Under the pieces are notes generated by a model. That model searched no databases. It was not told the DNA's origin and saw only the letters and a program-made list of their open reading frames with translations. A stretch of DNA of 32,000 nt. Origin: Pyrodictium abyssi (GTDB lineage: Archaea > Thermoproteota > Thermoprotei_A > Sulfolobales > Pyrodictiaceae). This document shows, one piece after another, positions 1,233 to 15,927 of this stretch. The DNA lies in NCBI RefSeq assembly GCF_036323395.1, contig NZ_AP028907.1:1350001-1382000 (forward strand), read 5' to 3'. Within the stretch, counting starts at the first letter, position 1; each line of letters opens with the position of its first letter. The position numbers were made by a program, and so were the translations under genes.

Positions 1233-2108
1233 TCAGCCCCAGAGCTTCCTTATTATATCTTTCACCGCCTCTTCTAGTGCTTTGACGCGGCACTCTAGGT
1301 CCTTCAGCAGATTCTCCATGTCGGCCAGCTTGGACACCATGTTCTTCAGCTCGCCTTGCAGCGCTGAGAGCTTGGCGGCAAGTATGTCTACTCTAGCGGA
1401 TATGTCGTTTATCGTCCTGGATAATAGGTCTACTTTTGCTTCTAGCTGGCTTACCCGTTTCTCAAGCTCGGTGTCCTTTGTTATCCTTTCCAGCTCTATG
1501 TTTATGCTAACAGATGAACCCACGTCCACGTTAGCCTCGGCTACGTAGTAGCCTGCTGCACGCACGAGTATCTTCACAGTCCCCTCTCGCACCGTGAGCG
1601 TCGCTTTGCCGTCCTTCCCGGTCTCCTCCACGTCTAACACATTACCCTTAGAGTCGTAGGCTACTACCACCGCCTTGGGCACCGGTAGCCCCGTGCCCTT
1701 CTCCACCACAGTTACGTAGACTGTTGGCAGCTTCGGTGGCGGCGGGAGCGGCTTGGACTTGAGAGTAAAGGTCGCTGAAGCTGATGCAGCGCCACAGACT
1801 ATTTCGACGCGGTAGTTCCCAGCAACCCATCCACCGGTCGGTATTGATGGTATGGGTATGCTAATCCCCTTAGCCGCGTCGTCGGCTGTTACGAGCATTA
1901 CCTTTACCGGCTCGCCTATCGGCGATAGCACACGTAGCGTAGCGATGTCGCAGGGAAGAGTGCCGTTCACCCTTATCTTCACAGTATCGCCATACTCATA
2001 GACGCTCTTGTCAAGCACTATCGTAAAGCTTGCAGCAATAGCCGCTGCCGAGAAGAGAGCCAGCGCGAGCACGTATAGAGGGAGTGTCCTCGTCCCGATG
2101 TGGCGCAT
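1233..2108 (-). CDS. Secreted protein: signal peptide, two beta-rich domains (the second is carboxypeptidase-regulatory/PEGA-like), Pro-rich linker and C-terminal ~80-aa coiled coil
   Basis: N-terminal signal LPLYVLALALFSAAAIAAS; PPPPKLP linker; VVEKGTGLPVPKAVVVAYDSKGNVLDVEETGKDGKATLTV motif; heptad-rich tail ELEKRVSQLEAKVDLLSRTINDISARVDILAAKLSALQGELKNMVSKLADMENLLKDLECRVKALEEAVKDI. An A/T-rich TATA-like stretch and GGAG lie upstream of the ATG. Confidence 0.8.
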   Translation of the reverse strand: MRHIGTRTLPLYVLALALFSAAAIAASFTIVLDKSVYEYGDTVKIRVNGTLPCDIATLRVLSPIGEPVKVMLVTADDAAKGISIPIPSIPTGGWVAGNYRVEIVCGAASASATFTLKSKPLPPPPKLPTVYVTVVEKGTGLPVPKAVVVAYDSKGNVLDVEETGKDGKATLTVREGTVKILVRAAGYYVAEANVDVGSSVSINIELERITKDTELEKRVSQLEAKVDLLSRTINDISARVDILAAKLSALQGELKNMVSKLADMENLLKDLECRVKALEEAVKDIIRKLWG

Positions 2109-2306: not shown

Positions 2307-3467
2307 CTAGCCGAGGCTAACGAGCAATGGCATCTTGACGCCGTTTACTTCATCCACCACCCTATACCATATAGTGTTGCCGCTCTCCACGAAGTTTTGG
2401 TAAGGGAGATAAGGAGGCTTCTCGTACAGCAGCGTACCGCCGAGCCGTACCACATGCTTGAAGCCTCCCTTGGATCTGTACACAGCTATTCTCACAGTCA
2501 TGTCGTCTAGCAGCGTTACGCGTATCCATTCGTCACCATCCATATCCGCCTTGGTGCAGTCTGTTATTACCTCGGGTGAGTCCTCCCAGGCTATTAGGAA
2601 GTCGCGGCCAGCACCCCCTACCGGCTCCAGTATGAAGCACATAGTCTCGTTATACGGCTGCCCATTTTGTGGGTGCACCTCGTGCTTGAAGCAGAGTGTA
2701 GTGTTCTCCCCCGGCCTAGTGTTCTCGAGCACCACCACGCCGCGGCCGCAGAAGAGGCTGTTGAGGTACGTGCCGTTGGACACGGGGAGTACCCGCCCCT
2801 CTACCGGGGTGCTGCCAGCGGGCTCGTAGCGGTACGTTCCTAGCGCTAAGTCTAGTACGAGTCTTGAGCGGAACACACCGGTACTACCGTCGTAGCCCTC
2901 GAAGATGAACGCTGGTAGTCTGGGTCCACCGCTCACACTCTTTACCTCGAAGTGCACCATTATGGGTAGGTTGTCAAAGAGTACTCCCTCCCGGGCCTCG
3001 TAGTAGGCTTTCCCCGTCAGCTCGGCGTAGGTGGCGTAGAAGTCGCTGTAGTCGAGCGTGATGAGCGCCGCTGGCCTGTCCAGCGTTAGCACGGCCTTCT
3101 CCTGCTCGCCACGGGCTGTGACGCTAGAGAGCACGACTTGTAGGCTCTGGAATGCTTTCTGCAGCTCCTCTACCGGCTCTAGCTCTGCTTTTATGACGGC
3201 TACTCCTACCCCGGGGAGCGGGCGTATCCTCACCCGGCCGAGACTCGCCTCCCCCATAGCGCCCGGAGAGGTGATAACGGTCCCTAGTCCTCCCTCGATC
3301 TCCAGGGGCTCGCTGGTAGCGCTAGCTTCCCCCACCGCTGAGCCTCCACCGCCCCCTGGAGCTAGGGTGGTAGCGTAGGCAAGGAGCAGCCCCGCAACCG
3401 CGAGGACTAGTGGCAGCGCGAATAGGAGTACCCGGCCCCCGGTGTCCATGGCTTCTACCCGGTGCAT
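2307..3467 (-). CDS. Secreted Can-like (cannula-subunit-family-like) domain fused to a ~200-aa C-terminal domain of unknown function
   Basis: Signal/TM segment VLLFALPLVLAVAGLLLAYATT. Residues ~30-180 share the same landmarks as the 11204 ORF: (Y/F)ATT...SEP(L/I)(E/D)(I/V); EKAVLTLDRPAALITLD versus EVKAVLSLKKPSAVIVLD; YYEAREGVLFDNLPIMVHFEVKSVS versus YYEAKEGMLFDSLPVILNFQVLSVS. The start may be Met7 (3449). Confidence 0.8.
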   Translation of the reverse strand: MHRVEAMDTGGRVLLFALPLVLAVAGLLLAYATTLAPGGGGGSAVGEASATSEPLEIEGGLGTVITSPGAMGEASLGRVRIRPLPGVGVAVIKAELEPVEELQKAFQSLQVVLSSVTARGEQEKAVLTLDRPAALITLDYSDFYATYAELTGKAYYEAREGVLFDNLPIMVHFEVKSVSGGPRLPAFIFEGYDGSTGVFRSRLVLDLALGTYRYEPAGSTPVEGRVLPVSNGTYLNSLFCGRGVVVLENTRPGENTTLCFKHEVHPQNGQPYNETMCFILEPVGGAGRDFLIAWEDSPEVITDCTKADMDGDEWIRVTLLDDMTVRIAVYRSKGGFKHVVRLGGTLLYEKPPYLPYQNFVESGNTIWYRVVDEVNGVKMPLLVSLG

Positions 3468-3622: not shown

Positions 3623-5383
3623 ATGGAGAGGTGGAGGGTGCTGAGGACCCTGCAGCGCTCTGGCCTGCTCGACACCGCGGCTGGGCTCCTGGTGGGGCTC
3701 TATGCTTCTCTGTTGTTCCGCGGCCTCGTAGCCGGGAGCGGGCTGCCTAGCTTCGAGCACGGTGTATTCAGGGATGCCAACATAGCGTTCTACATATCCT
3801 ACGCCACTATGATAGATGCCTGGGGTAGCCTCTGTGTGCCTACGTGGTTCGGCTTCTTCGACACTGTGCGGTTCTACCCACCGTTGGGAAACATGCTCAT
3901 CTATCTCCTAGGCGCCGTGCTGGACGGCGACTACGTGAGGGCCGCTATGCTGGCCTACATGGTTGTCCTCGTGGCGTTTGTCTCCGGGTTCTATACGCTC
4001 ATATACACGTTGACGGGGTCGCGGCTCGCGGGGCTTCTCGCGGCGCTGCTCCTGCCCCTAGTCCATGGCTACGCTTCCACTATTGCGCTGTACTGGGAGT
4101 ACAATAGGCTCCTCGGCGAGGCTTTCATGTTCCACGCGCTGGCGAGGCTCCACGCCTTCATGGAGCGCGGGGATAGGCGGCTGGCGCTCAGCGCAGCAGC
4201 CTACATGGCGCTAGTCCTGCTAAGCAACCTCGTAGCCTTCATAGAGGCGCTAGCGCTCGCACTAGCCACTGTCATGTACTGGGCCCGCCGCCACCTAGCA
4301 GAGGGCGCTGGCCCCGAGGAGCTGCTCTACCTTGCACAGAGGCTGGCCCTGGCATCCCTGTTCTTTCTCGGGCTTACGCTCTGGTGGCTCGCCCCCGCCA
4401 TAGCCCCCTACGGGCTGGGGCACTACCTCCGCATAAAGACGCCGCTAGGGTTCAAGGCTAGGGTCGTGGCCCTCGCGCTCCAGAGCGGGGCTCTACCGCC
4501 GCTCTGGAGCCCGGCGGTCCAGCTCCCGCTCCTCGTGGCAGGCGCCGTGGCTCTGATCATTCATCTGCTTCTCCGGAGCCGTGGCAGCGTGCTAGCCTAC
4601 TACGCTGCCGCACTAGCTGTGCTAATAGCCGTGTATGGACAGGGGCTGAGGCTTCTCCCGAGCCTCGGAGCCGTCCTAGCGGCTGCCGTCGCCTCGCTGC
4701 CACCCGCCGTAGCGGAGCGCGTAGGCGGCCGCTACCGCTGGGTGGCGGCAGCAGCCGCTATGATCCCGGCCATGCTTCTCGCTGGCTTCTACCTCGGCGC
4801 GTACCTGGGCGTCTATAGCACGCTTCTCCGGCCCGACTACAGCTTCATGGGGAGCGACGAGTACCGGGTAGCAGTGTGGCTGAGGGACAACCTGCCGGAG
4901 GGCTGTAAGGCCTACCTCATGCATGGGCCCCGGTTCCGCGGGGGCATGTGGGTCAACGTGTTCGCGCCGCGTGTCGAGCAGGTTCTGGGCGGCTACGTTG
5001 AGGGAGCTCTACCCGGTGTGGGGGACGAATACCTGCGCCTGGACTACATCATAAAGGAGACCGGCGACTGGTATACAGCCTACCAGCTTATGAAGAAGCT
5101 GGGCGTCGTGTACCTTGTCGTTGACAGGGCGTGGATGGAGTCCCACTGGGGCAGCGTCGTCGAAAGGCTAGAGAAGCGCGGGCTGATAGAGCCCGTGGAC
5201 GAGGTCAACAAGCAGCTAGGCTACAGCATGGTCTACCGGGTAGTCAACGCGACGTGCACAGACGGCTCTAGAGCCCCAGGGCTCTTCGAGTGTCTTGCGC
5301 TGCCCTCGAGGATTGTGGGCGCTGGGCTCTCGGCCGCCTCCATGCTTCTGTTTGCCCGCTGGCTGCGGAGGCTAGAGGACTAG
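3623..5383 (+). CDS. Large polytopic membrane protein with a C-terminal soluble domain (GT-C-glycosyltransferase-like architecture; function unproven)
   Basis: About 12 or more hydrophobic helices followed by a ~170-aa soluble tail. I moved the start to ATG 3623 (MERWRVL...). The 3410 start in the ORF track overlaps the divergent 2307-3467 gene, and its first 71 residues look non-coding. No AglB WWDYG motif was seen. Confidence 0.75.
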   Translation: MERWRVLRTLQRSGLLDTAAGLLVGLYASLLFRGLVAGSGLPSFEHGVFRDANIAFYISYATMIDAWGSLCVPTWFGFFDTVRFYPPLGNMLIYLLGAVLDGDYVRAAMLAYMVVLVAFVSGFYTLIYTLTGSRLAGLLAALLLPLVHGYASTIALYWEYNRLLGEAFMFHALARLHAFMERGDRRLALSAAAYMALVLLSNLVAFIEALALALATVMYWARRHLAEGAGPEELLYLAQRLALASLFFLGLTLWWLAPAIAPYGLGHYLRIKTPLGFKARVVALALQSGALPPLWSPAVQLPLLVAGAVALIIHLLLRSRGSVLAYYAAALAVLIAVYGQGLRLLPSLGAVLAAAVASLPPAVAERVGGRYRWVAAAAAMIPAMLLAGFYLGAYLGVYSTLLRPDYSFMGSDEYRVAVWLRDNLPEGCKAYLMHGPRFRGGMWVNVFAPRVEQVLGGYVEGALPGVGDEYLRLDYIIKETGDWYTAYQLMKKLGVVYLVVDRAWMESHWGSVVERLEKRGLIEPVDEVNKQLGYSMVYRVVNATCTDGSRAPGLFECLALPSRIVGAGLSAASMLLFARWLRRLED

Positions 5384-5458: not shown

Positions 5459-6601
5459 ATGCGTGTTCCCATACTAGTGCTTCTTCTGCTAGGCCTAGCT
5501 GTACTAGCACTAGCGGTGCACACGGCTAGAGCAGAGGAGGCACCGGATATAGACGCTGTGGGCAGGGTTAGATACGTCATCGACGGGGACACGATGAGAG
5601 TCTATATACTCCGCGTTGACCAGCCGGTGCAAGCGTGCAGTGAAGGAGTCCTAGAGCCCCGGGCCACCATAACGATACGGCTTGCCGACATAGATGCGCC
5701 AGAGCAGAATGAGCAGGACTACGAGAAGGCGCGGGATGCGCTAGAGCGACTGATAGACGGGAAGATAGTACACATAGACGTGGACGACTATAGCTGCATA
5801 GGATACTATGGAAGAGTCGTCGCCGTGGTCTATCTAGAGTATAACGAGACACACATGCTTAACGTGAACGAGTGGCTGCTCGAGGAGGGCTACGCACGGG
5901 AGTACAACTTTACAAACAACGAGTTTGACCCCAGGGACTGGAGCCTCTACGTGCCCATATTCCCCTGGGATGACTACGGCCTGGACTTCGTAAGGCTAGA
6001 GGGCGCCGGAAACGTCACGCTCAGCGGAGACATAGAACTCCAGGTCGCAGTCGTGGACAGCGGCCGCGAGCCCCTCATATGCTTCGGCGGAGGGAGGGGC
6101 TGCGAGAGCATAGACGGCGATCTCGGCGACACGCACAGAGTGAGGATAGTCCTCAACGACACCGACGGAGCCAGGCTACGGCTATACCCCGACGGCTACA
6201 TAGGCTACGTGAAAGATCTAGACATAGAGGAGCTTTACATCGATGACAGGCTTATAGCATCAGACACGAGCATAGAGGGGGTATACGGGCTCCGCATAAC
6301 ATGGGCGGATAACGGTATAAAGCTAGCATTCACGGGAAACATAACCCTACTAGAGCTCAACGGGGACCAGCTGGCCACACCCGGCCAGGAACCCGGGGCA
6401 ATAGTGCTCGAAGACCTAGTACCCCTCAGCCTAGGCCTAAGAGAGACGGCGAGCATCACCGGGTTCGCCAGGATGCTCGCAAACCCGGAGGAGGTACCAG
6501 AAGCGCCGCTTCCAGCGCTCCTAGCTCTACCCGTTGCAGCACTGCTCCTCGTCCTAGCCCTGCACATTTACTCCCAGCTCAAAAGGAGCCACAGCGGCTA
6601 A
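5459..6601 (+). CDS. Secreted, C-terminally membrane-anchored thermonuclease (staphylococcal-nuclease/SNase fold) with an extra ~200-aa ectodomain
   Basis: Signal peptide MRVPILVLLLLGLAVLALAVHTARA. SNase motifs VIDGDTMRV...IRLADIDAPE...GYYGRVVAVVY...NEWLLEEGYARE. Several N-x-S/T sequons. C-terminal tail PEEVPEAPLPALLALPVAALLLVLALHIYSQLKRSHSG, that is Pro-rich motif plus TM plus basic end. Confidence 0.85.
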   Translation: MRVPILVLLLLGLAVLALAVHTARAEEAPDIDAVGRVRYVIDGDTMRVYILRVDQPVQACSEGVLEPRATITIRLADIDAPEQNEQDYEKARDALERLIDGKIVHIDVDDYSCIGYYGRVVAVVYLEYNETHMLNVNEWLLEEGYAREYNFTNNEFDPRDWSLYVPIFPWDDYGLDFVRLEGAGNVTLSGDIELQVAVVDSGREPLICFGGGRGCESIDGDLGDTHRVRIVLNDTDGARLRLYPDGYIGYVKDLDIEELYIDDRLIASDTSIEGVYGLRITWADNGIKLAFTGNITLLELNGDQLATPGQEPGAIVLEDLVPLSLGLRETASITGFARMLANPEEVPEAPLPALLALPVAALLLVLALHIYSQLKRSHSG

Positions 6602-6702
6602 AACGGCATAGAGAGCACCGCTTGCGGCCTCCAGGCCCCTCCAAGCGTTCGTCGTCCTGGGGAAGGGCGAGGCCCTCTAGCTAGAAAGTTCTTTGTGTCT
6701 GG

Positions 6703-6918
6703 TTGCTTCCTGGTCTATACCCGGGGTGTTGTTTGTTAGGCCGCGTCGACTACGCTGTCAAGAGGTGGGGCCGGAGCCTCTACCTGCTACTCCCGAAGCA
6801 CATCGCCGACATGTACGGGATAGGCGTGGGGGACAGGTTCCTAGTGGAGGCCCGGGAGGAGGACGGGGAGGTGCTGATGGTCTTCAGGTTCCCGAGGAAG
6901 AAGGAGGAGAGAGGCTAG
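6703..6918 (+). CDS. AbrB/SpoVT(MazE)-family swapped-hairpin DNA-binding protein (antitoxin-like)
   Basis: VKRWGRSLYLLLPKHIADMYGIGVGDRFLVEA is a typical AbrB/SpoVT beta-hairpin core. The start is uncertain: TTG 6703 or TTG 6733. Confidence 0.65.
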   Translation: MLPGLYPGCCLLGRVDYAVKRWGRSLYLLLPKHIADMYGIGVGDRFLVEAREEDGEVLMVFRFPRKKEERG

Positions 6919-7155
6919 GCGGGCACGGGTACCCTCTTCTCTCGGGCCCTGATTTCCTCAAGGTAGCGGCGCCACCACTCCTCCTCAAGGTCTACCCCTT
7001 GCTCGGCTAGAGCCTCGAGGTAGTCCTCGAGGGCTTTGAAGACTTCGAGGGGGTCAACGCTCTCGGGGCACTGGAAGTGTTCTACGCAGAGCCAGGCCTC
7101 GTAGGGGGTGAGGCCTAGCCTCGGGAGCCCCCAGGGCCCGGTTTAGCCTGGTCAT
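6915..7155 (-). pseudogene. Small (~79 aa) conserved-looking ORF interrupted by a 1-nt frameshift in a G5/C5 homopolymer
   Basis: ATG 7155 is preceded by GGAGGG. The first frame, MTRLNRALGAPEARPHPLRG..., dies after 33 codons. Dropping one base of the C5 run at 7128-7132 gives MTRLNRALGLPRLGLTPYEAWLCVEHFQCPESVDPLEVFKALEDYLEALAEQGVDLEEEWWRRYLEEIRAREKRVPVPA*. It is convergent with, and overlaps, the AbrB gene stop. Confidence 0.4.
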
Positions 7156-7834
7156 CCCTCCTCTCTCCTCTTCTCTGTCTGCACCTCTTCTCCCTTATAT
7201 AGCCGGGACCGGGCAGAGGGCTAGCACCCAGCACTCTCCTAGGTGGATGTATAGGCTCCACTTCATGCCGCATGCAGGGTATAGGTGCCGGTCGAGGCCT
7301 AGCAGGGTCTTTCTGCCCCAGAGTAGCCGCATCCTAGCCTTCAGCCCTTCTCGTCTCCTTGTCCCTAACGATGCTGACGGCAAGGCCGAGCTTCCAGAGC
7401 CTTAGTGCCCCATCCCGCCCCGGCCTTCGAGGTATAGTCCAGGTATAGGGCTATGCCGCATCGTATATGAGCCAAAGCTATACCAAAGAGGCTACACAGC
7501 GGTCAAGGGCCGCCTCTGTGCAACATAGAGGCATTCACGCAGCTCCAGGTCCCATAGTAAGTTACACAAAACCAGCATCAGCTAGCAACACGCCATGATG
7601 CATGACACGCTCACTCCAGAAAGCCAGACGCCAGACAGAAGGGACAAGCCACACGCACGCCCAGAGCAGGGCTCTCAGGGAAGAGGGAGGCAAGGCATGG
7701 CTAGAGGAGGGGTGAAGAGCTGGCGGCAGGGCCTCACCCCCTCACCGGAGGGGGTCTCCGCCCCGCCGCCCAAGAGGGCTCGGCGCCCCGGCTGCCGCCC
7801 CGCCCGCATGCTGTAAAGCAGGCTATGGCGTAAT

Positions 7835-7952
7835 AAGTATCTTATAGACCGTTGAGCGGTCTCGTTTATCTCCAAGTATCCGTTGAGGCCCGCCAGCGTG
7901 CTTCGGGCTATGCGGATTGGCGCGCGATGCGCGTCTACATGCAGACCGGTCT
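7835..7952. promoter_or_regulatory. Repeat-rich putative operator/promoter region upstream of the 8007 operon
   Basis: Half-sites AGACCG/CGGTCT occur twice. One pair has a 5-nt spacer (7846-7862, AGACCGttgagCGGTCT). The other is a perfect 10-bp palindrome (7943-7952, AGACCGGTCT) that abuts a TATA-like ctatagcattagttt. The direct repeats AAGTATC...CGTTGAG also occur twice (7835-7856 and 7874-7887). Confidence 0.3.
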
Positions 7953-8006
7953 ATAGCATTAGTTTAGGAGAGCCATGCATCCGGCGAGCCGGGGGCCCTC
8001 GAAGCA

Positions 8007-9257
8007 TTGGTACCCGTACCCCGTGTTTGCTGTAGCCTTGCTGTAGCCGTGTTCATTGTTATGGCCGGTCTTGTTCCGGCTGCTTGGGCCGCGGGTCTCG
8101 ATAGGGTGTTGTATGTGGCTACTGATAGCTATGATGCTGCTTTCCTCGAGGCGTTTCTAGGCTACTATAACGCTACGGCTAGGCTGGTCTACTTCCTGAA
8201 CAGCAGCCGTGTCCTGGATGAGCTAGAATGCGGCCCAAGCGATGTACTAGTTCTCTTGGATCCCAATATAGACGATACGGGACTTGCCCATAATGCTAGC
8301 GAGCGCATAGCTAGGCTCCTGGTTGACGGCTGCACCGTGGTGGCTACCCATAATGGGCTGGCTCTCTTGAATCTCACACTCACCGAGCTGGGCTATGTGG
8401 TGCACTCGGTAGACAACGTGACCGTCACCATGCCTGGCTACAATACTACGAAGTACAGGTATGCCTACTTGGTCACGCCCGACGGTAGAGTCCTCAACAC
8501 TACTGTGTGGTCTATAGAGGTTGGGAAAGGGAGACTCGTGGGCGTGGCTCTGAACGTTGTCTGGGCCTATGCCGATACGAGGAACACTACGTACCTGGAA
8601 CTGCTCTACAGCGCCCTTCAGGAGGCACTCAGCTCTCCTCCACGACCAGGCGTGGGCACCGCAGCTACAGCGGTGGGGGTGGCTGTTGCCGGCTCAGCTG
8701 CAGCGACTCTAGCGTCTTCGCGGGCGTACACACGAGCAGGCACGCCTAGAGGGGGCGGGGGAGGCGGGCACACGGGTAGGAGCGGTGGGCTAGGCGGCAC
8801 CGGGGGCGCAGGAGAGCCGGAAGACGCGCTTGTGGTTGCTCCTCTACGTGTAAAGACAGAGCCCAGTGAGATGCTCGAGCATCCTCTGAGGGCGCGTATG
8901 CTCCAGGTTCTCCGCGAGCGCGGGGCTGTACACCATAACGAGCTTATGCGTGTGCTCGGTGTCTCTAAGGCCACGCTCCGGTGGCACCTCTATATGCTGC
9001 TCCGTGGAGGCTACATAGGGTCCCTCCGGTACAAGAAGTACCTGGTATACTTCGCGAGAGGCCGCGAGCTCGATGCCATCCGGAGCCTGGCGGCCCGGGA
9101 CGAGCAGTTCTGCGGCATCCTCCAGGGGCTCGCAGAGGGAGTCCCTCTTGAGGTCCTCTCGCGCCGCTATCGTGTCAGCGTGAAGGGGCTCCAGGATCTC
9201 AGCGAGCTTGTTAAGAGGCTGGACGGCAAGCTTACCGATGTATGTAGGGAGGCCTAG
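8007..9257 (+). CDS. Membrane-tethered one-component regulator: signal/TM, ~180-aa N-glycosylated ectodomain, Ala/Gly-rich TM, Gly-rich linker, cytoplasmic ArsR-like wHTH plus helical tail
   Basis: N-terminus CSLAVAVFIVMAGLVPAAWA. Eight N-x-S/T sequons in the ectodomain. VGTAATAVGVAVAGSAAATLASS followed by RGGGGGGHTGRSGGLGGTGGAG. wHTH LEHPLRARMLQVLRERGAVHHNELMRVLGVSKATLRWHLYMLLRGGYIGSLRYKKYLVYF. TTG start as in the ORF track. Confidence 0.8.
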   Translation: MVPVPRVCCSLAVAVFIVMAGLVPAAWAAGLDRVLYVATDSYDAAFLEAFLGYYNATARLVYFLNSSRVLDELECGPSDVLVLLDPNIDDTGLAHNASERIARLLVDGCTVVATHNGLALLNLTLTELGYVVHSVDNVTVTMPGYNTTKYRYAYLVTPDGRVLNTTVWSIEVGKGRLVGVALNVVWAYADTRNTTYLELLYSALQEALSSPPRPGVGTAATAVGVAVAGSAAATLASSRAYTRAGTPRGGGGGGHTGRSGGLGGTGGAGEPEDALVVAPLRVKTEPSEMLEHPLRARMLQVLRERGAVHHNELMRVLGVSKATLRWHLYMLLRGGYIGSLRYKKYLVYFARGRELDAIRSLAARDEQFCGILQGLAEGVPLEVLSRRYRVSVKGLQDLSELVKRLDGKLTDVCREA

Positions 9258-10569
9258 AGAGGCCTTGGAGGGTTTTAGCTACCTAGCGCACGAGCTGTCC
9301 TGGTGGCCAGTGTTCCTCCGGGGTCTCTTGTACTACCTCCTGGTAGCCATACTCGTCGCTGGCCAGGCAGTTATGAGCGTCTACGCGGCCTGGTACATTG
9401 CGTCGTTTATGGAGTACTTGGTCTGGAGGCGGCAGAGGCCCAGACTCGAGCCCATGTGGGAGGGGCCGCTGGTGGCTGTAGTTGTTCCTGTGTACAACGA
9501 TTATGAGGTCCGCTCCTCCCTGGAGGCCCTCGTGAAGCAGAAGTATAGGCCATACCTTGTAGTTATTGTTGATGATTCAAGCGACTTTGGGCTTGTCGCC
9601 GATCTCTCTAACCATGCGCTGAGAAGCGGTGGCAAGGTTATCCACCTCCGCCGCCATGGCCGGAGGGGTCTTAAGGCAGGGGCGTTGAACGACGCTATAG
9701 ACCTGCTCGAGAAGTATAGGCCAAAGTACGTGGTGTTCTTCGACGCCGACTTCGAGCCCCCGCCCGACACGCTGGCCAGGCTCGTAGCCTATGCCGAGCG
9801 CTTCGACGCCGACATAGTGCAGGGGTATCAGAGGCACGTAAAGGGCTCAGAGACACTGTTTGGGCTCGTATATCGTGCGAGCCAGGGAGGAGCTATAGTA
9901 AACATGATTGGCCGCATGATGATGAGCATGATGCCCATATTCACTGGTTCCTGCGCGCTCATCCGCTACGACCTGCTCTATGAGACCCGGTTCCGCGAGG
10001 GGAGCATCTCTGAGGACTGGAGGTGGACTATCGATGTACTCCTGGAGAGGGAGCGTCTCCGCTACATAGCGGTGGACGAGGTATACGCTAACGGTAGCGT
10101 GCCGAAGAGCCAGAGGGCGTTTATAAGGCAGCAACTCCGCTGGTCTAGCGGCACCCTATACGAGACACTATGCACGCTCCTAGACTTCATGTCCGCGAGG
10201 CTGCCGCTGGGCGTGAAGGTGGGCTACCTGCTCCAAGGGTTGTTCTACAGCCAGGGTCTCTGGGTGTACCTTACGGTCCTCTCCTCGCTGCTGCTAGCCC
10301 AGCTCTACGGCGTGGACCTCCAAAGCTACGTTTGGCCCCTGGGGCTCTACGTGTGGCTCCTAGGGATAGAGACCGCCATACTCGCTGGCGCGCTCATCGA
10401 GCGGTACACCCCGAGGCAGATACTCTCGACAGCTGTAGCGACCCTGGCTATGATATACTACGTGGCTGCCACCCATGCGTATGGGACGCTTATAGCCTTA
10501 CTAGGAGAGACAGCCTCGTGGCGGGTCACCGGGAAGAGGGGTAGCTATGAGGCAGAGTACCAGGATTAA
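9238..10569 (+). CDS. Integral-membrane processive family-2 glycosyltransferase (cellulose/chitin/PNAG/hyaluronan-synthase-like beta-glycan synthase)
   Basis: Motifs VVVPVYNDYE, VIVDDSSD, GLKAGALNDA, VFFDADFEP (DxD), SISEDWRW ((S/T)ED) and RQQLRWSSG (QxxRW). There are 1-2 N-terminal and about 4 C-terminal TM helices. I chose ATG 9238, which lies 20 nt inside the upstream ORF, over the 9208 alternative start. Confidence 0.9.
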   Translation: MYVGRPREALEGFSYLAHELSWWPVFLRGLLYYLLVAILVAGQAVMSVYAAWYIASFMEYLVWRRQRPRLEPMWEGPLVAVVVPVYNDYEVRSSLEALVKQKYRPYLVVIVDDSSDFGLVADLSNHALRSGGKVIHLRRHGRRGLKAGALNDAIDLLEKYRPKYVVFFDADFEPPPDTLARLVAYAERFDADIVQGYQRHVKGSETLFGLVYRASQGGAIVNMIGRMMMSMMPIFTGSCALIRYDLLYETRFREGSISEDWRWTIDVLLERERLRYIAVDEVYANGSVPKSQRAFIRQQLRWSSGTLYETLCTLLDFMSARLPLGVKVGYLLQGLFYSQGLWVYLTVLSSLLLAQLYGVDLQSYVWPLGLYVWLLGIETAILAGALIERYTPRQILSTAVATLAMIYYVAATHAYGTLIALLGETASWRVTGKRGSYEAEYQD

Positions 10570-11056
10570 CACCTTCTACAAGATACTACTCATGTTCCTA
10601 GTACTCACGGCAGCCCTTGAGGCACTCGTAGAAACTGTAGGCAGGCATATTATACAGCTAGAGGCAGACATGATAATGGTTGTCCTCGGCGCTGTCGGCG
10701 TAAAGGCCTTGTCCACTGCCCCTGGCACCGTAGCCATTATAGGAGACAGGGAAGTCGTAACCCTAGTGCTTACCGACGAGTGCATCGGAGTCTACTCGCT
10801 CGCCGTTTACGCGGGTCTAGTACTGCTTACGCCACTCGCGGGTAGCCGTAACAAGGCATACGCGCTCTCCTTTGGGCTCCCTCTACTATTCCTGATAAAC
10901 ACAGCCCGTATAGCCCTTGCAGGCCTTGTAGCCGCCCACCTGGGTGGCCCGTGGTTCCGAATAATCCATGACGTAGTGGGCAGCAGCACCATGCTGCTTG
11001 CCGTGACCCTTATATGGCTAAGATGGATAAGCCGCGCCCTCAGCGTGGATACATAA
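10547..11056 (+). CDS. Minimal (169 aa) exosortase/archaeosortase-family membrane protein
   Basis: Four to five TM helices. The family landmarks are in canonical order and spacing: LTDEC(79)IGVYSL, then FLINTAR(121)IALAG, then RIIH(141)DVVGSS. The ATG lies 23 nt inside the GT2 ORF, which indicates translational coupling. Confidence 0.7.
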   Translation: MRQSTRINTFYKILLMFLVLTAALEALVETVGRHIIQLEADMIMVVLGAVGVKALSTAPGTVAIIGDREVVTLVLTDECIGVYSLAVYAGLVLLTPLAGSRNKAYALSFGLPLLFLINTARIALAGLVAAHLGGPWFRIIHDVVGSSTMLLAVTLIWLRWISRALSVDT

Positions 11057-11203: not shown

Positions 11204-11743
11204 ATGAGGGAGATGCGTTACCAGACACTAGCTCTCCTAGGCATAATAGCATCGGCTGCTGCTCTCGCCCTGCTAGCTGGCTTCGCCACTACCCAGAGCC
11301 CGCTAAGCAGCTTCTACGCCACCGGCACAGCACAAGCAGTAAGCGAGCCAATAGATGTGAAAGTGATAGGTGACCTCCAGATAAAGCCTGCTGCTGGTGC
11401 GCAGGGTAAGACCAGTGAGGTACAGTGGCTTAACATAACCAAGTATACCGATGTAAATGTTGTAAAGCTGAAGGTGAAGATAGCTAACGCTGCTCAGCTA
11501 AAGCCCTACTTCAAGTACCTACGGCTTGTGCTAAAGAGTGCTGACAGCAACGAGGTAAAGGCCGTGCTAAGCCTCAAGAAGCCTAGTGCGGTGATAGTAC
11601 TAGATGAGGAGGACTTCAGTACCAATGCTGGTAATGCAAATGACTGTATCATAAACGTGACTGCCTACTATGAGGCTAAGGAAGGTATGCTGTTCGACAG
11701 CCTACCAGTAATACTTAACTTCCAGGTACTAAGCGTCAGCTGA
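11204..11743 (+). CDS. Secreted Can-like (cannula subunit family / donor-strand jelly-roll fibre subunit-like) protein, 179-aa precursor
   Basis: Sec-type signal LALLGIIASAAALALLAGFA|TTQSPLSSFYATGTAQAVSEPIDV. It shares blocks with two other ORFs in the window. The C-terminus is AYYEAKEGMLFDSLPVILNFQVLSVS. From memory it closely resembles Pyrodictium abyssi CanA (unverified). TATA-like elements lie at 11165-11198 and an oligo-T tract follows downstream. Confidence 0.8.
   Translation: MREMRYQTLALLGIIASAAALALLAGFATTQSPLSSFYATGTAQAVSEPIDVKVIGDLQIKPAAGAQGKTSEVQWLNITKYTDVNVVKLKVKIANAAQLKPYFKYLRLVLKSADSNEVKAVLSLKKPSAVIVLDEEDFSTNAGNANDCIINVTAYYEAKEGMLFDSLPVILNFQVLSVS
11264..11340 (+). repeat. Copy 1 of a 77-nt near-identical block shared by the two Can-like genes (end of signal peptide plus mature N-terminus)
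   Basis: 75/77 nt identical to 13991-14067; mismatches only at 11305 and 11307. A second block, 11477-11519, matches 14201-14243 at 41/43 nt. Confidence 0.9.
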
Positions 11744-12350: not shown

Positions 12351-12845
12351 CTAGTCTGCCCCTCTCCTCTTCACCATGGAGGCTATCTCCCTTACCAGCC
12401 TTTCCACCCTCCTGTAGGCCGTTGTGACGTCCTTTTCGGCGCACCAGCCTTCGTAGAAGCAGGTGTGCATCTCGTTGCCCGCGGCCCAGGCGTCGCTGAC
12501 CCATTCTCCTAGCTCTTTTTCGAGCACCCTCTTGTACATCCATAGCTCCCGGTGGCTGGTGAGCCTCTTGCCGCCCCTCCACCACGCGTAGGCCTTCACG
12601 GCCAGCGCAGCAGCGCCCCAAGCCTTCCCGGCAGCCTGCCTCACGTCGCCCCTCTCCAGCTCCTCGCGGGCCTACCCGAGAAGAGCTGTGGCGGCCTCCA
12701 CGTACTCCAGAGCCTTATCCTTCGGGTCCAAACCCTGGCTGAGAAGCTCCGCCACGTACTCGTCGACGCTAACCCCTAGCCTCCCAGCCTCCTCCCAGAC
12801 GCGCCGGGCGAGGCGGCCACGGACAACGATAACTGGCTGGTCCAA
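12351..12845 (-). pseudogene. PaREP1-family protein (RHH-like N-terminus plus PaREP1/HEPN-like helical domain) interrupted by an in-frame TAG
   Basis: The downstream ORF (12351-12644) reads RQAAGKAWGAAALAVKAYAWWRGGKRLTSHRELW...FYEGW, a PaREP1 signature. The same frame continues upstream through a TAG at 12672-12674 into (TTG 12845) DQPVIVVRGRLARRVWEEAGRLGVSVDEYVAELLSQGLDPKDKALEYVEAATALLG*AREELERGDV... Confidence 0.65.
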
Positions 12846-13106
12846 ACCTGGCCGCCACTCAGCGCTTATTATACTCGAGTACTGCTAGCTTTAACTTCGT
12901 CTCTCGGGCTTGCGGGACCCCGGGTACGCTATGTGGGCTTGTGATACACAGGGTAGATGATTGGCAGCGAGATGGCTGTGGGCCCGGAGGTGCCCCGTGG
13001 AGAGGCAGCAGCACACGGTCAAGGGCTTCTCTGCGGTTGCTCTTATAGCGTGCTACCCGGGTGTGCTCTAGGTAGGGGTTCTCGGTCTGTGTCTCTCAGC
13101 GGTGGT

Positions 13107-13673
13107 GTGGACCGGAGGGCTCTCGGGGAGGCGCTGCTGGAGCTGCTTGAGGAGGACCGGGAGTTCCGCCACGCTGTGATGGGGCTGCTGGGCTACCGCG
13201 AGGTACTGGAGAGGATAACCAGGCTTGAGGAGCGGTTCGCGAGACTAGAGGAGAGGTTCGCCAAGCTGGAGGAGGAGTTCCTGGAGCTGCGGAGGGCCCA
13301 GCAACGCCTCGAAGAGAGGCAGCAGCGCCTAGAGGAGAGGCAGCAGAAGCTAGAGGAGCACGGTATGGAGGAGCGGCGTGTGCAGAGGCTACGCTACGTG
13401 GACGCCGATGGGAGGTTCATAGCGCCGGGGGCTACGCTAGAGATAGACGTCTACATAAATGAAGGCGATGTATGGCTGGTGGAGGTGAAGAGCTACGTCG
13501 AGGCAGACGACGTCACATGGTTCTACGAGAAGACACGGATAGCGGAGAAGGTCCCCGGCCGGAGACCCTCCCGCAGGATAATGCTCGCAGTAGAGGCCAC
13601 AAAGGCCGCCGCGAGGGCCGCGGAGGCGCTAGGTGTAGAGCTGCTCGCCGACAAGATAGTAGAAGAGGAGTAG
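13107..13673 (+). CDS. Coiled-coil plus PD-(D/E)XK nuclease-fold protein (archaeal repetitive family)
   Basis: Heptad repeats RLEERFARLEERFAKLEEEF...RLEERQQRLEERQQKLEEH are followed by LEIDVYINEGDVWLVEVKSY (the D...E-x-K core). The start is uncertain. The ORF track begins at 12957, but residues 1-50 look non-coding, so GTG 13107 is proposed. Confidence 0.65.
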   Translation: MDRRALGEALLELLEEDREFRHAVMGLLGYREVLERITRLEERFARLEERFAKLEEEFLELRRAQQRLEERQQRLEERQQKLEEHGMEERRVQRLRYVDADGRFIAPGATLEIDVYINEGDVWLVEVKSYVEADDVTWFYEKTRIAEKVPGRRPSRRIMLAVEATKAAARAAEALGVELLADKIVEEE

Positions 13674-13939
13674 AGCAATACTCCTCCATAGACCTCTATG
13701 AAGCTTCTTTCTCAGCATGTCTTGTCCAGCACTCTAGGGCTTAGCCGGCTCTCCGGTTCTCATCCACACTATCCGCTGATCCTAGGGTCTCCACCCCACA
13801 TCTCTGCGAAGGATTCTTAGAGCCTCCCAGCGAGAGGAGGCCACATCAAAACACCTATGCCAAACCGCAGAAATATTCTAGGACATATTTTTGAGGCCAC
13901 GAAAACCACTCCTAGATATGATAGAGCAGAGTGCCCGCT

Positions 13940-14890
13940 ATGAGGCCTACGGCTCTGGCTCTGGCTGGCATCGTGGCCTCGGCTGCCGCCCTCGCCCTGC
14001 TAGCTGGCTTCGCCACTACCCAGAGCCCGCTCAACAGCTTCTACGCCACCGGCACAGCACAAGCAGTGCAAGAGCCAATAGACGTAGAAAGCCACCTAGA
14101 CACAGCAATAGCTCCCGCCGCCGGGGCGCAGGGAGCCAAGGACATGGGCTACGTAGTAGTACCGGTAGGCAGCCAGGTAGACGACGTAAAGCTCCTAGTA
14201 AAGATAGCTAACGCTGCACAGCTGAAGCCCTACTTCAAGTACCCCATGCTACAGATAACAAGCAAGTACGAGATACGAGAAAATGACACAGTGGTTGTGG
14301 AGGTGCGTTTGAGTAATTCGGTGAACCGGATATAGTATAGGGGGTAGCGACGACACTGTAGTAGTGCAGACTAAGGAGTACTTGCCTTGGTCTGGCTGTA
14401 GGAACATAACGGTGGTTGATGAAGAGGATAGTGACGGGGATTGGGCCCTGGTGGAGGTATGCAGCGATAGGGGTAGCGGCGGGAACGCAATGAATGCTAC
14501 TATCTATAGCCTCGGGTTCACCAGCACTAGTGGCACATGGTATCTATTAGAGCCCGTCAGAACGGGCAACATAAACATATCCGGCATACTAAGAGTGGAC
14601 AACACGGTAGTTTGGAAGGAGGCTGCCGATGATAGTTATAGCGAGGTTAAGGCTGTGCTTAGCCTCTGGAAGCCCAGTGCTGTGGTTATCCTCGATGCCG
14701 AAGATATAGTAGAGATTGAGCACGGCTGTGATAAGGGCGTGTTCCTTGACAAGAACGGTTGATAGCTGGCCCTGGTATGGACTGGAAGGGTGCTGTCCTG
14801 GCTCTGAAAGCGTTCTACGAGATCCGTGAAGGCGCATTGTTCGACAGCCTACCGATAATCCTTAGCATAGAAGTACTGAATACCAGCTAG
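13940..14890 (+). pseudogene. Second Can-like gene, larger paralogue with a ~130-aa insertion, split into three ORFs by a +1 and then a -1 frameshift
   Basis: ORF a (13940-14335): signal plus ATTQSPLNSFYATGTAQAVQEPIDV...AQLKPYFKY. ORF b (frame +1, open 14325-14762) contains EVKAVLSLWKPSAVVILDAEDIV. ORF c (back in the original frame, open 14750-14890) reads KGAVLALKAFYEIREGALFDSLPIILSIEVLNTS*. All three pieces are collinear with the intact 11204 gene. Confidence 0.75.
13991..14067 (+). repeat. Copy 2 of the 77-nt near-identical Can N-terminal block
   Basis: See 11264-11340; the offset is 2727 nt, so the two copies are in the same reading phase. Confidence 0.9.
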
Positions 14891-15090
14891 CCGCTGAGGC
14901 AAGCCTTCAAGTGATCTCATGCCAAGGGCTACTTAGTTGCTGCGGGCCACCATAACCGTATGGGGCTACATCTTCGCGGAAGCCTATACGCAGAGGTGTG
15001 CCGCGTCTCTGGCATCCCTGGATGCTGGCGCGGGGAGACTGGCTTCTTTAGCCTACGTGTGGCCGTGCCGGGACACCGGGGAGGCTATGC

Positions 15091-15492
15091 ATGGGGCCTA
15101 GGATTGTCGAGGGCAGGCGCGTCAAGGGCTTTGGGGTCGGCGGCCGCTATGTCGGGCACCCGTACTATGGTGGGTGGTTTGAGCGGCTTCTAGGCTGCCG
15201 GCCCTTCCCGGGCACGTTGAACGTCGAGGCTAGTGTCGACTGGCGTGAGCTGGCTGGGCTCTGCGAGCCCGTGGTGGTGCCGGAGACTGTGTGGGAGGGG
15301 CAGCGGCTCGGCGCTGTCTATGTGTGGAGGGCGAGGCTCAGGACCAGGGAGGGGCCGGTCGAGGTGCTTATTATACGCCCGCTGCTGAGCGGTCATGGCC
15401 CGCGGGTGCTCGAGCTGGTGGCGTGCAGCAAGCTCGCGCCGCTGCTTGACAGTGATCGCGTGGAGCTTGAGATTCTATGCAGCGGGGCTTAG
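15091..15492 (+). CDS. ribK: Archaeal CTP-dependent riboflavin kinase
   Basis: 133 aa. [34 protein letters not shown] matches the G-x-G...Y...lG..PfPGTLNv signature of the MJ0056-type family. Confidence 0.8.
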
Positions 15493-15603
15493 TGCCCGCT
15501 TAGCGCGGCAGTATTATGCTTGTCCTCGACCTAGATAAGCCTCTCCTCCTCAGCTCCATGTAAGCGTCTAGCAGCGCCTTAAGCCGAGGGCTCTGGTAGA
15601 GTA

Positions 15604-15927
15604 TTATCCTTCTTCGATGGCGTCTATTATTATCGGGTTGCCCCGGAGGAGCATCCGTGTAGCCTCCTCGATTGTGTAGGGGTGTGGCTCAACCTCTACC
15701 GGGAGGTCTGAGAGAAGATCCAGTATACGGGCTATCCGGTCCAGATACTTCTCTCGGAACTCTGCTATTACGAGTATGTCGTAGTCGCTCCAGGGGACCC
15801 AGTCGCCCCGCGCCCTGGAGCCGAAGAGTATTATGGCGTCCACTCCACGGGGCCCATTGACAAGCTTTTCTACTATCTCCTTGACGCGGCTGTCGTGTAC
15901 GCGTCTTTTAGCCCGTTTGTTTCTCAA
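15604..15927 (-). CDS. Minimal nucleotidyltransferase (MNT) of a HEPN/MNT toxin-antitoxin-like pair
   Basis: ILFGSRARGDWVPWSDYDILVIAE matches the GSxxRGD...DxD motif. It overlaps the end of the upstream HEPN gene by 20 nt. Confidence 0.85.
   Translation of the reverse strand: MRNKRAKRRVHDSRVKEIVEKLVNGPRGVDAIILFGSRARGDWVPWSDYDILVIAEFREKYLDRIARILDLLSDLPVEVEPHPYTIEEATRMLLRGNPIIIDAIEEG

Follow-up and report, generated by a model that had tools for sequence, protein, structure and literature searches.

A stretch of 32,000 nucleotides of the Pyrodictium abyssi genome (NCBI RefSeq assembly GCF_036323395.1, contig NZ_AP028907.1, positions 1,350,001 to 1,382,000; further referred to as the window) contains an open reading frame (ORF) that encodes a member of the exosortase/archaeosortase superfamily (Table 1). 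This protein, further called the sortase, is probably the processing enzyme of a five-gene surface-modification cassette that is conserved in Desulfurococcales and Pyrodictiaceae. Besides the sortase, the cassette consists of a BcsA/PgaC-like glycosyltransferase of family 2 (GT2), a winged-helix protein, a PF10131-like membrane protein, and a secreted protein, the target, which was retrieved in nine of the ten cassettes with readable upstream DNA. The cognate substrate of the sortase is likely this target, represented in the window by a thermonuclease encoded 4 kb upstream of the sortase gene. The initial annotation, made from the sequence of the window alone, had correctly located a 169-amino-acid ORF at 10547-11056 but had seen no obvious cognate sorting signal nearby; the latter does not hold, as the tail of the thermonuclease (5459-6601) appears to be the window copy of a conserved cassette substrate family.

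The superfamily assignment, already proposed in the initial annotation, was borne out by profile searches, in which the ORF passed the cutoffs of both the NCBIfam model TIGR04178 'exosortase/archaeosortase family' (48.5 bits; cutoff 23) and Pfam family PF09721 (30.5 bits; cutoff 25.7). Classification by hidden Markov models (HMMs) succeeded at this level only, as none of the named NCBIfam subfamilies was reached; the scores stayed below the cutoffs for ArtB (TIGR04144; 42.7 bits, cutoff 150), ArtF (TIGR04293; 39.9 bits, cutoff 150), exosortase X (XrtX, NF046081; 39.1 bits, cutoff 170), and exosortase G (XrtG, TIGR03110; 30.7 bits, cutoff 102.75), and the ArtA model (TIGR04125) was absent among the matches at E <= 10. 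Cassette-clade sortases and more distant aligned relatives matched the ArtB, ArtF, and XrtX models with E values of 6e-22 or weaker. The public annotation of two cassette sortases is at family level only, the names in use being 'exosortase/archaeosortase family protein' or 'hypothetical protein'. The ORF is indeed about half as long as classical members; a length of 150-170 amino acids is normal for many named subfamilies, as the profiles of ArtB, ArtD, ArtE, ArtF, XrtX, XrtR, and XrtS comprise 150-168 positions. An exhaustive search of 1.84 billion representatives yielded 229 homologues at E <= 1e-3, the closest of which were 30-43% identical and 168-198 amino acids long. A word-indexed protein search with the sortase as query returned only the protein itself and one relative with 77% identity, and five proteins when the alignment was used as query; the homologues of use were thus all obtained by the exhaustive search. 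A second Pyrodictium copy of the sortase, 77% identical, occurs in the same gene order.

Residue conservation was counted over the 151 best matches of the sortase. Cys79 (in TDECIGV), Arg121 (in INTARI), and His141 (in IIHDVVG), which occupy the positions and motifs pointed out before, were near-invariant (147/151, 148/151, and 148/151, respectively), and Asn118 (149/151) was added to this putative catalytic set. Hence, neither a placement in an unrelated family nor a variable Cys/Arg/His triad among homologues, both of which would have spoken against the assignment, was found, since the family models were passed and the triad was kept in 147-148 of the 151 relatives. An AlphaFold (AF2) model based on 25 homologues (predicted local distance difference test score, pLDDT, 91.6; predicted template modelling score, pTM, 0.82) consists of a long helix (residues 4-49), a three-stranded sheet (53-74), and helices 82-94, 100-132, and 134-167. 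The three residues had been placed on transmembrane helices, which agrees with the model for Arg121 and His141, whereas Cys79 lies just ahead of helix 82-94, at its N-terminal cap. The model helices and the hydropathy profile indicate a polytopic membrane protein with its catalytic residues near the predicted outer face. Indeed, the N-terminus is K/R-rich and the loop 98-105 is basic, which, following the positive-inside tendency, suggests that the sheet, Cys79, Arg121, and His141 are all on the outer membrane side. No solved structure resembled the sortase by sequence or by fold (best fold match E = 0.68). Altogether, the ORF appears to encode an active-looking archaeosortase-type transpeptidase of an unnamed clade.

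To place the sortase in its genomic context, loci with sortase relatives down to 24% identity and loci found via the large membrane protein were fetched (designated by L numbers), and their ORFs were annotated with local HMMs. The cassette was found in Hyperthermus butylicus DSM 5456, Desulfurococcus mucosus, Thermogladius sp. 4427co, metagenome-assembled genomes (MAGs) of Desulfurococcales and Pyrodictiaceae, and vent metagenomes. A GT2 gene of the same type adjoins every sortase relative in these loci (24-43% identity). The glycan-synthase neighbour recognized earlier is, in the window, a GT2 protein in which the motifs DAD, SED, and QQLRW of processive beta-glycan synthases can be read directly from the sequence; its best curated similarities in NCBIfam are PgaC/IcaA, NodC, and CelA, and its closest solved structure is cellulose synthase BcsA. 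The stop codon of the GT2 gene overlaps the ATG of the sortase gene by exactly 23 nucleotides in seven loci (window, L001, L004, L008, L009, L022, and L027) and by 8-26 nucleotides in three further loci. At this junction (10547-10569 in the window), the sequence AAGAGGGG occurs 5-8 nucleotides upstream of the sortase ATG and is kept even though the proteins are only 30-40% identical. This conserved overlap, with AAGAGGGG just 5' of the ATG, argues for translational coupling of the GT2 and the sortase.

The substrate assignment builds on the target family. Target genes lie directly upstream in the cassettes and encode proteins of 205-265 amino acids with a Sec-type signal peptide, a beta-rich domain, and a tripartite C-terminus, composed of a YVNGxEVPE motif, a transmembrane helix, and a basic cluster. 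These tails read ...YINGAEVPELGSPLSLVGLALAASLLAVVGRAVKARDR in H. butylicus, ...YVNGSEVPEVTPLSVLALSALPVIAAGTSMLAGRRSRA in D. mucosus, ...YVNGSEVPKVGSVFIATPIILLALAYPVYRLFKSRKNF in Thermogladius, ...YVNGSEVPEFGLAGLFGLGLLFLLALTGG... in L004, and ...YVNGTEVPEFSPIGLVALALAGLLILVKGLR... in L022; the thermonuclease of the window ends in ...FARMLANPEEVPEAPLPALLALPVAALLLVLALHIYSQLKRSHSG. The nine columns of the YVNGxEVPE motif are the most conserved part of the family, with a mean pairwise identity of 0.51 versus 0.29 overall. A tail pattern scan of L001-L019 and the window retrieved only the five target-family members present there, and a search with the target HMM through the 309 kb of loci fetched (1352 ORFs in all) matched only cassette-adjacent ORFs. 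Furthermore, the family was found in none of the nine loci that have a PF10131-like gene without a sortase. In the window, both the SNase domain of the thermonuclease and its tail of motif, transmembrane helix, and basic cluster, as noticed before, were recovered. The motif could be aligned to the YVNGxEVPE motif of seven other cassettes, the C-terminal half aligned lengthwise with the target family, and the target HMM matched with E = 8e-6 (2e-5 on a rerun with a larger ORF set). No other ORF in the window has an EVPE-type motif followed by a transmembrane helix. By sequence comparison, the thermonuclease is hence best described as this genome's member of the target family, into which an SNase domain has been inserted behind the signal peptide. 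Among the fetched loci, this SNase fusion occurs only in the window, and only there is the cassette set among cannula genes. In the PDB, the target gave profile matches to Tako8, a designed propeller, and at a marginal level to FimG; these were judged to be compositional or due to chance.

The remaining two cassette members are membrane proteins as well. The winged-helix protein (about 400 amino acids) is present in all cassettes, and the window and H. butylicus copies share 32% identity along their full length. It is composed of a signal peptide or anchor, an ectodomain of about 200 amino acids, an Ala/Gly-rich hydrophobic segment (residues ~216-237), which is likely a transmembrane helix, a Gly-rich linker, and a cytoplasmic ArsR-type winged helix. 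It is probably a membrane-tethered regulator of the cassette. The large multi-pass protein belongs to a family of about 570 amino acids and shares 39% identity with the protein encoded after the sortase in H. butylicus. The window protein itself did not match PF10131 ('PTPS_related'). Homologues retrieved with the family HMM (E = 1e-48 to 1e-104) scored above the PF10131 threshold of 26.4 in L017 (55.4), L015 (35.3), and L014 (26.7), the D. mucosus cassette member has a precomputed PF10131 match, and weaker PMT_2 matches occur in the family. This family may thus represent a divergent, GT-C-like branch of PF10131. No sequence match was found in the PDB, and a fold model from two sequences (pLDDT 40) was not used. 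An indexed protein search returned two proteins, and a metagenome scan with the family alignment only Bathyarchaeia fusions without a sortase. PF10131-like homologues without a sortase were found in Bathyarchaeia and other MAGs, some of them still beside a GT2 gene (L015 and L017), so the GT2/GT-C pair looks like the older core of the cassette. Giant PF10131-domain proteins occur in Bathyarchaeia and vent metagenomes (1572-1598 amino acids in L012, L016, L018, and L019; at least 1075 amino acids in L011, at a contig end), and the PF10131-like proteins of L013 and L017 carry TPR repeats. Neither sortase nor target genes were found in the loci L011, L012, L013, L016, L017, L018, and L019.

The cassette is not uniform. 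In the complete genome of Thermogladius (L008; CP196893.1), the gene for the helix-turn-helix (HTH) protein, that is the winged-helix protein, is broken into two ORFs and that for the PF10131-like protein into three (5577-6711, 8518-10274), while the sortase, GT2, and target genes are all intact; the split genes may reflect cassette decay or frameshifts. In L024/L025 (1084-7047), the gene order is GT2, sortase, HTH protein, PF10131-like protein, and a second GT2, and a HEPN/nucleotidyltransferase pair lies upstream of the cassette. In the window, the 1.4 kb between the substrate and HTH genes (6601-8007) contains no long ORF and interrupts a cassette that is contiguous in other genomes; a small MazE/AbrB-type ORF lies in this region (Table 1).

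Several observations weigh against the assignment of the sortase as a processing enzyme of the target and of the thermonuclease as its substrate. The match of the latter to the target HMM, given above, is modest, and its motif NPEEVPEAP deviates from the consensus NGSEVPEFG. The upstream protein of L027 has the same layout with an SSEG motif and was missed by the target HMM; the motif thus drifts to (P/S)EG right before the helix in L027, and less so in L020. In L024/L025, a target gene was found neither in the 2.4 kb of upstream contig nor in 10 kb downstream. No Pfam or NCBIfam model covers the target family, and no CTERM model recognizes its tail. Alternatively, the conserved motif ahead of the helix could mark where a folded domain ends, in a protein that stays anchored permanently. 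Lastly, cleavage, lipidation, and glycan attachment are ascribed to this sortase clade only by analogy with characterized systems.

These points bear on a first alternative, in which the sortase-like protein serves the GT2/GT-C glycan machinery as an accessory subunit, for instance by handling a lipid-linked or glycan intermediate; no protein would be cleaved and the target would be a permanently membrane-anchored protein of the operon. Indeed, the tightest and most conserved linkage of the sortase gene, through the 23-nucleotide overlap, is with the GT2 gene, and the L024/L025 cassette without a nearby target would fit as well. Furthermore, the GT2 and PF10131-like pair also occurs without a sortase (L015 and L017), which would make glycan synthesis the core function, and we know of no small exosortase that has been demonstrated to be a protease. 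Yet, sortase and target co-occur and co-vanish across loci, and conservation in the target is highest at a motif just outside the transmembrane helix, as in all described exosortase signals. In addition, the near-invariant Cys/Arg/His triad consists of the very residues that ArtA proteolysis requires (PMC6098224). An accessory role is therefore considered unlikely, if worth keeping in mind, and processing of the target by the sortase remains the preferred explanation.

A mechanism for this processing may be drawn from ArtA of Haloferax volcanii, the sole archaeal member for which cleavage and lipid attachment have been obtained experimentally; its cleavage needs Cys, Arg, and His, and the product is lipid-modified (PMC6098224). 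By analogy, the substrate would be exported by Sec and retained via its C-terminal helix. Cys79, which together with Arg121 and His141 is predicted to lie close to the outer membrane face, would then attack the chain at or near EVPE, whereby the helix and basic tail would be removed and discarded and an acyl-enzyme would be formed. Finally, the new C-terminus would be handed to an acceptor. One option is a membrane lipid, the acceptor in the case of Haloferax ArtA; the other is the product of the GT2/GT-C pair, be it a glycan or a lipid-linked sugar. This other option deserves serious consideration, because the sortase is so tightly coupled to a processive GT2 and a GT-C-like protein. The full form of this second alternative, namely that the sortase transfers the substrate C-terminus to a polysaccharide or lipid-linked precursor made by the GT2/GT-C pair and not to a lipid, so that the Pyrodictium nuclease would be fixed in the cannula matrix, is rather doubtful. 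If true, wall-less hyperthermophilic archaea would display protein covalently joined to glycan on their surface.

Among known systems, the layout of the cassette appears analogous to the XrtG system of Lactiplantibacillus (Firmicutes), which comprises one CTERM protein (Firmicu-CTERM), XrtG, and two glycosyltransferases (PMC12854382). Both combine a small exosortase, a single co-encoded CTERM substrate, and two glycosyltransferases, one of which is a GT2. The second partner of XrtG may be a PF10131-type protein. NCBIfam models named XrtG-associated (TIGR03111) and XrtP-associated glycosyltransferase exist; the GT2 of the window did not match TIGR03111 at E <= 1e-3, and that of the D. mucosus cassette reached 27.5 bits at most, against a cutoff of 364, suggesting that the GT2 partners are not orthologous. 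Similarly, the sortase falls far short of the XrtG model, as given above, and the cassette differs from the XrtG system in its sorting motif, archaeal host, and extra membrane-tethered winged-helix protein. By score, neither the sortase nor the GT2 falls in XrtG-type families, and the system is best regarded as a new, unnamed subfamily of the known kind in which a dedicated exosortase is combined with glycosyltransferases. It differs from the named subfamilies in four respects: a new sorting motif, the added membrane-tethered HTH protein, an archaeal host, and the phylum Thermoproteota.

The cassette shares the superfamily, the Cys/Arg/His triad, and the order of motif, transmembrane helix, and basic tail with ArtA/PGF-CTERM, but its motif is of the EVPE type instead of PGF, its substrate is seemingly single, and its genes have become part of a glycosyltransferase operon. 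The length of ArtA is about double that of the cassette sortase. The number of predicted PGF-CTERM substrates that ArtA serves per genome ranges from one to 52, the S-layer glycoprotein being among them (PMC6098224). ArtB (VPXXXP-CTERM), ArtF, and exosortase X are of a similar size (156-168 profile positions), can be aligned end to end, and are the best-scoring named subfamilies, but their cutoffs of 150-170 are far above the 39.1-42.7 bits reached. ArtF is paired with the PEFG-CTERM signal. In the literature searched, this signal came up solely in work on ammonia-oxidising Thaumarchaeota. Some cassettes have a similar ...EVPEFG, but no model match backs an identity. Finally, in the PEP-CTERM/exosortase A (EpsH) system of Gram-negative bacteria, the exosortase is tied to exopolysaccharide genes and a Pro-Glu motif lies right before the transmembrane helix (Haft 2006/2012, as summarised in PMC6098224). 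The cassette resembles it in the link between exosortase and polysaccharide genes and in the Pro-Glu-containing motif; unlike this compact five-gene cassette, PEP-CTERM/EpsH systems lie in large exopolysaccharide loci and serve many substrates. EpsH-type enzymes have eight transmembrane segments (the NCBIfam model is named 8TM_EpsH) and are much larger.

The cassette of the window is surrounded by cannula genes (Table 1), which raises a third explanation, namely that the sortase processes cannula subunits, with their EGxLFDxLP...F(Q/E)V C-terminus acting as a sorting signal without a transmembrane helix. The downstream secreted fibre genes ending in this motif are present, as noted earlier, and encode cannula (Can) subunits; Can-like genes occur on both flanks of the cassette. 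However, in the paralogue at 2307-3467 the motif lies mid-protein, about 200 amino acids before the C-terminus, which makes it part of the Can domain rather than a sorting signal, and Can proteins have neither a C-terminal transmembrane helix nor a basic cluster. In vitro filament assembly was carried out with recombinant mature CanA, from which nothing but the signal peptide was missing, and CanX was concluded by the same authors to self-assemble with calcium and without external assistance (bioRxiv 10.1101/2024.12.30.630787). Moreover, CanX homologues have been reported only in Pyrodictiaceae (bioRxiv 10.1101/2024.12.30.630787). In the loci fetched, no Can-like ORF was found within about 8 kb of the H. 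butylicus cassette or near those of D. mucosus and Thermogladius; the gene downstream of the H. butylicus cassette, which encodes 180 amino acids, is not Can-like. Given the place of the motif in the Can domain and the assembly results for CanA and CanX, cannula subunits are not sortase substrates, the adjacency to the cassette being specific to Pyrodictium, and this third explanation is very improbable. It is just as hard to believe that the ORF is a decaying or inactive remnant, a view favoured by the nearby cannula-like gene broken over three frames and by the Thermogladius large membrane and HTH proteins, each in pieces, but countered by an intact ORF with a 77% identical second Pyrodictium copy in the same gene order, by the retention of every catalytic and family-invariant residue, and by the preserved nested start with AAGAGGGG upstream.

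The broken Can-like gene (13931-14890) is either a pseudogene or the result of sequencing errors. Four ORFs (12351-15927) make up a set of small accessory genes between, and just past, the two downstream Can genes. The secreted protein encoded at 1233-2108 may serve to anchor the S-layer or matrix. Scans of the window for Rfam families and for tRNAs gave no matches. Lastly, P. abyssi cannulae have been reported to hold a DNase-I-sensitive cargo of 2 nm. As a thermonuclease is encoded in this cannula cluster, a surface-tethered nuclease may be relevant to cannula DNA.

Table 1. Features of the Pyrodictium abyssi window discussed in the text, cassette members first (positions are those of the window).
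Feature	Position	Strand	Evidence and remarks
Archaeosortase/exosortase-family protein	10547..11056	+	ATG-to-TAA, 169 amino acids; TIGR04178 and PF09721 matches
Candidate substrate (signal peptide, SNase domain, beta-rich target domain, C-terminal sorting signal)	5459..6601	+	SNase PF00565, E = 8.9e-12
Putative tripartite sorting signal ANPEEVPEAP / LPALLALPVAALLLVLALHIY / SQLKRSHSG	6479..6601	+	Residues 341-380 plus stop codon
Membrane-embedded GT2, processive-synthase type	9208..10569	+	Pfam GT2 families; true start may be Met ~9238
Membrane-tethered winged-helix protein	8007..9257	+	HTH_20 match at residues 290-335
Multi-pass membrane protein with C-terminal soluble domain	3623..5383	+	~586 amino acids from ATG 3623; mechanical ORF start 3410
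MazE/AbrB-type ORF, 71 amino acids	6703-6918		PF04014, E = 1.2e-7
Cannula subunit ('fibre' gene)	11204-11743	+	PDB 9h8b (CanX), E = 4.6e-68; CanA (7uii), E = 1.8e-39
Can-like paralogue, Can domain plus C-terminal extension of ~200 amino acids	2307-3467	-
Can-like gene in three frames (13931-14335, 14364-14762, 14759-14890)	13931-14890	+
PaREP1-family protein with partner ORF of 57 amino acids	12351-12644, 12672-12845	-
Coiled-coil protein with PD-(D/E)XK nuclease domain	12957-13673	+
Nucleotidyltransferase (NTP_transf_2)	15604-15927	-
Secreted protein, CarboxypepD_reg-like domain and long C-terminal coiled coil	1233-2108	-	Similarity to SlaB (S-layer stalk) 38 bits, far under cutoff

According to a 2018 review, archaeosortases occur in some of the Euryarchaeota and are lacking in Sulfolobales; Thermoproteota are not mentioned there as bearers (PMC6098224). 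Literature searches retrieved no paper tying archaeosortases to Pyrodictium, Hyperthermus, or the cassette. Cannula loci have been described as being without genes for chaperones or a dedicated signal peptidase, and the cassette is not mentioned in that paper (bioRxiv 10.1101/2024.12.30.630787). The present analysis corrects this picture of the cannula locus, in that one such locus contains a glycan-synthase/sortase cassette and a gene for a secreted nuclease. Furthermore, it places what is probably a complete enzyme-plus-substrate system in cultured Thermoproteota, namely H. butylicus, D. mucosus, Thermogladius, and Pyrodictium. With a single identifiable substrate and five genes, the question of which acceptor a small exosortase uses becomes directly testable in these organisms.

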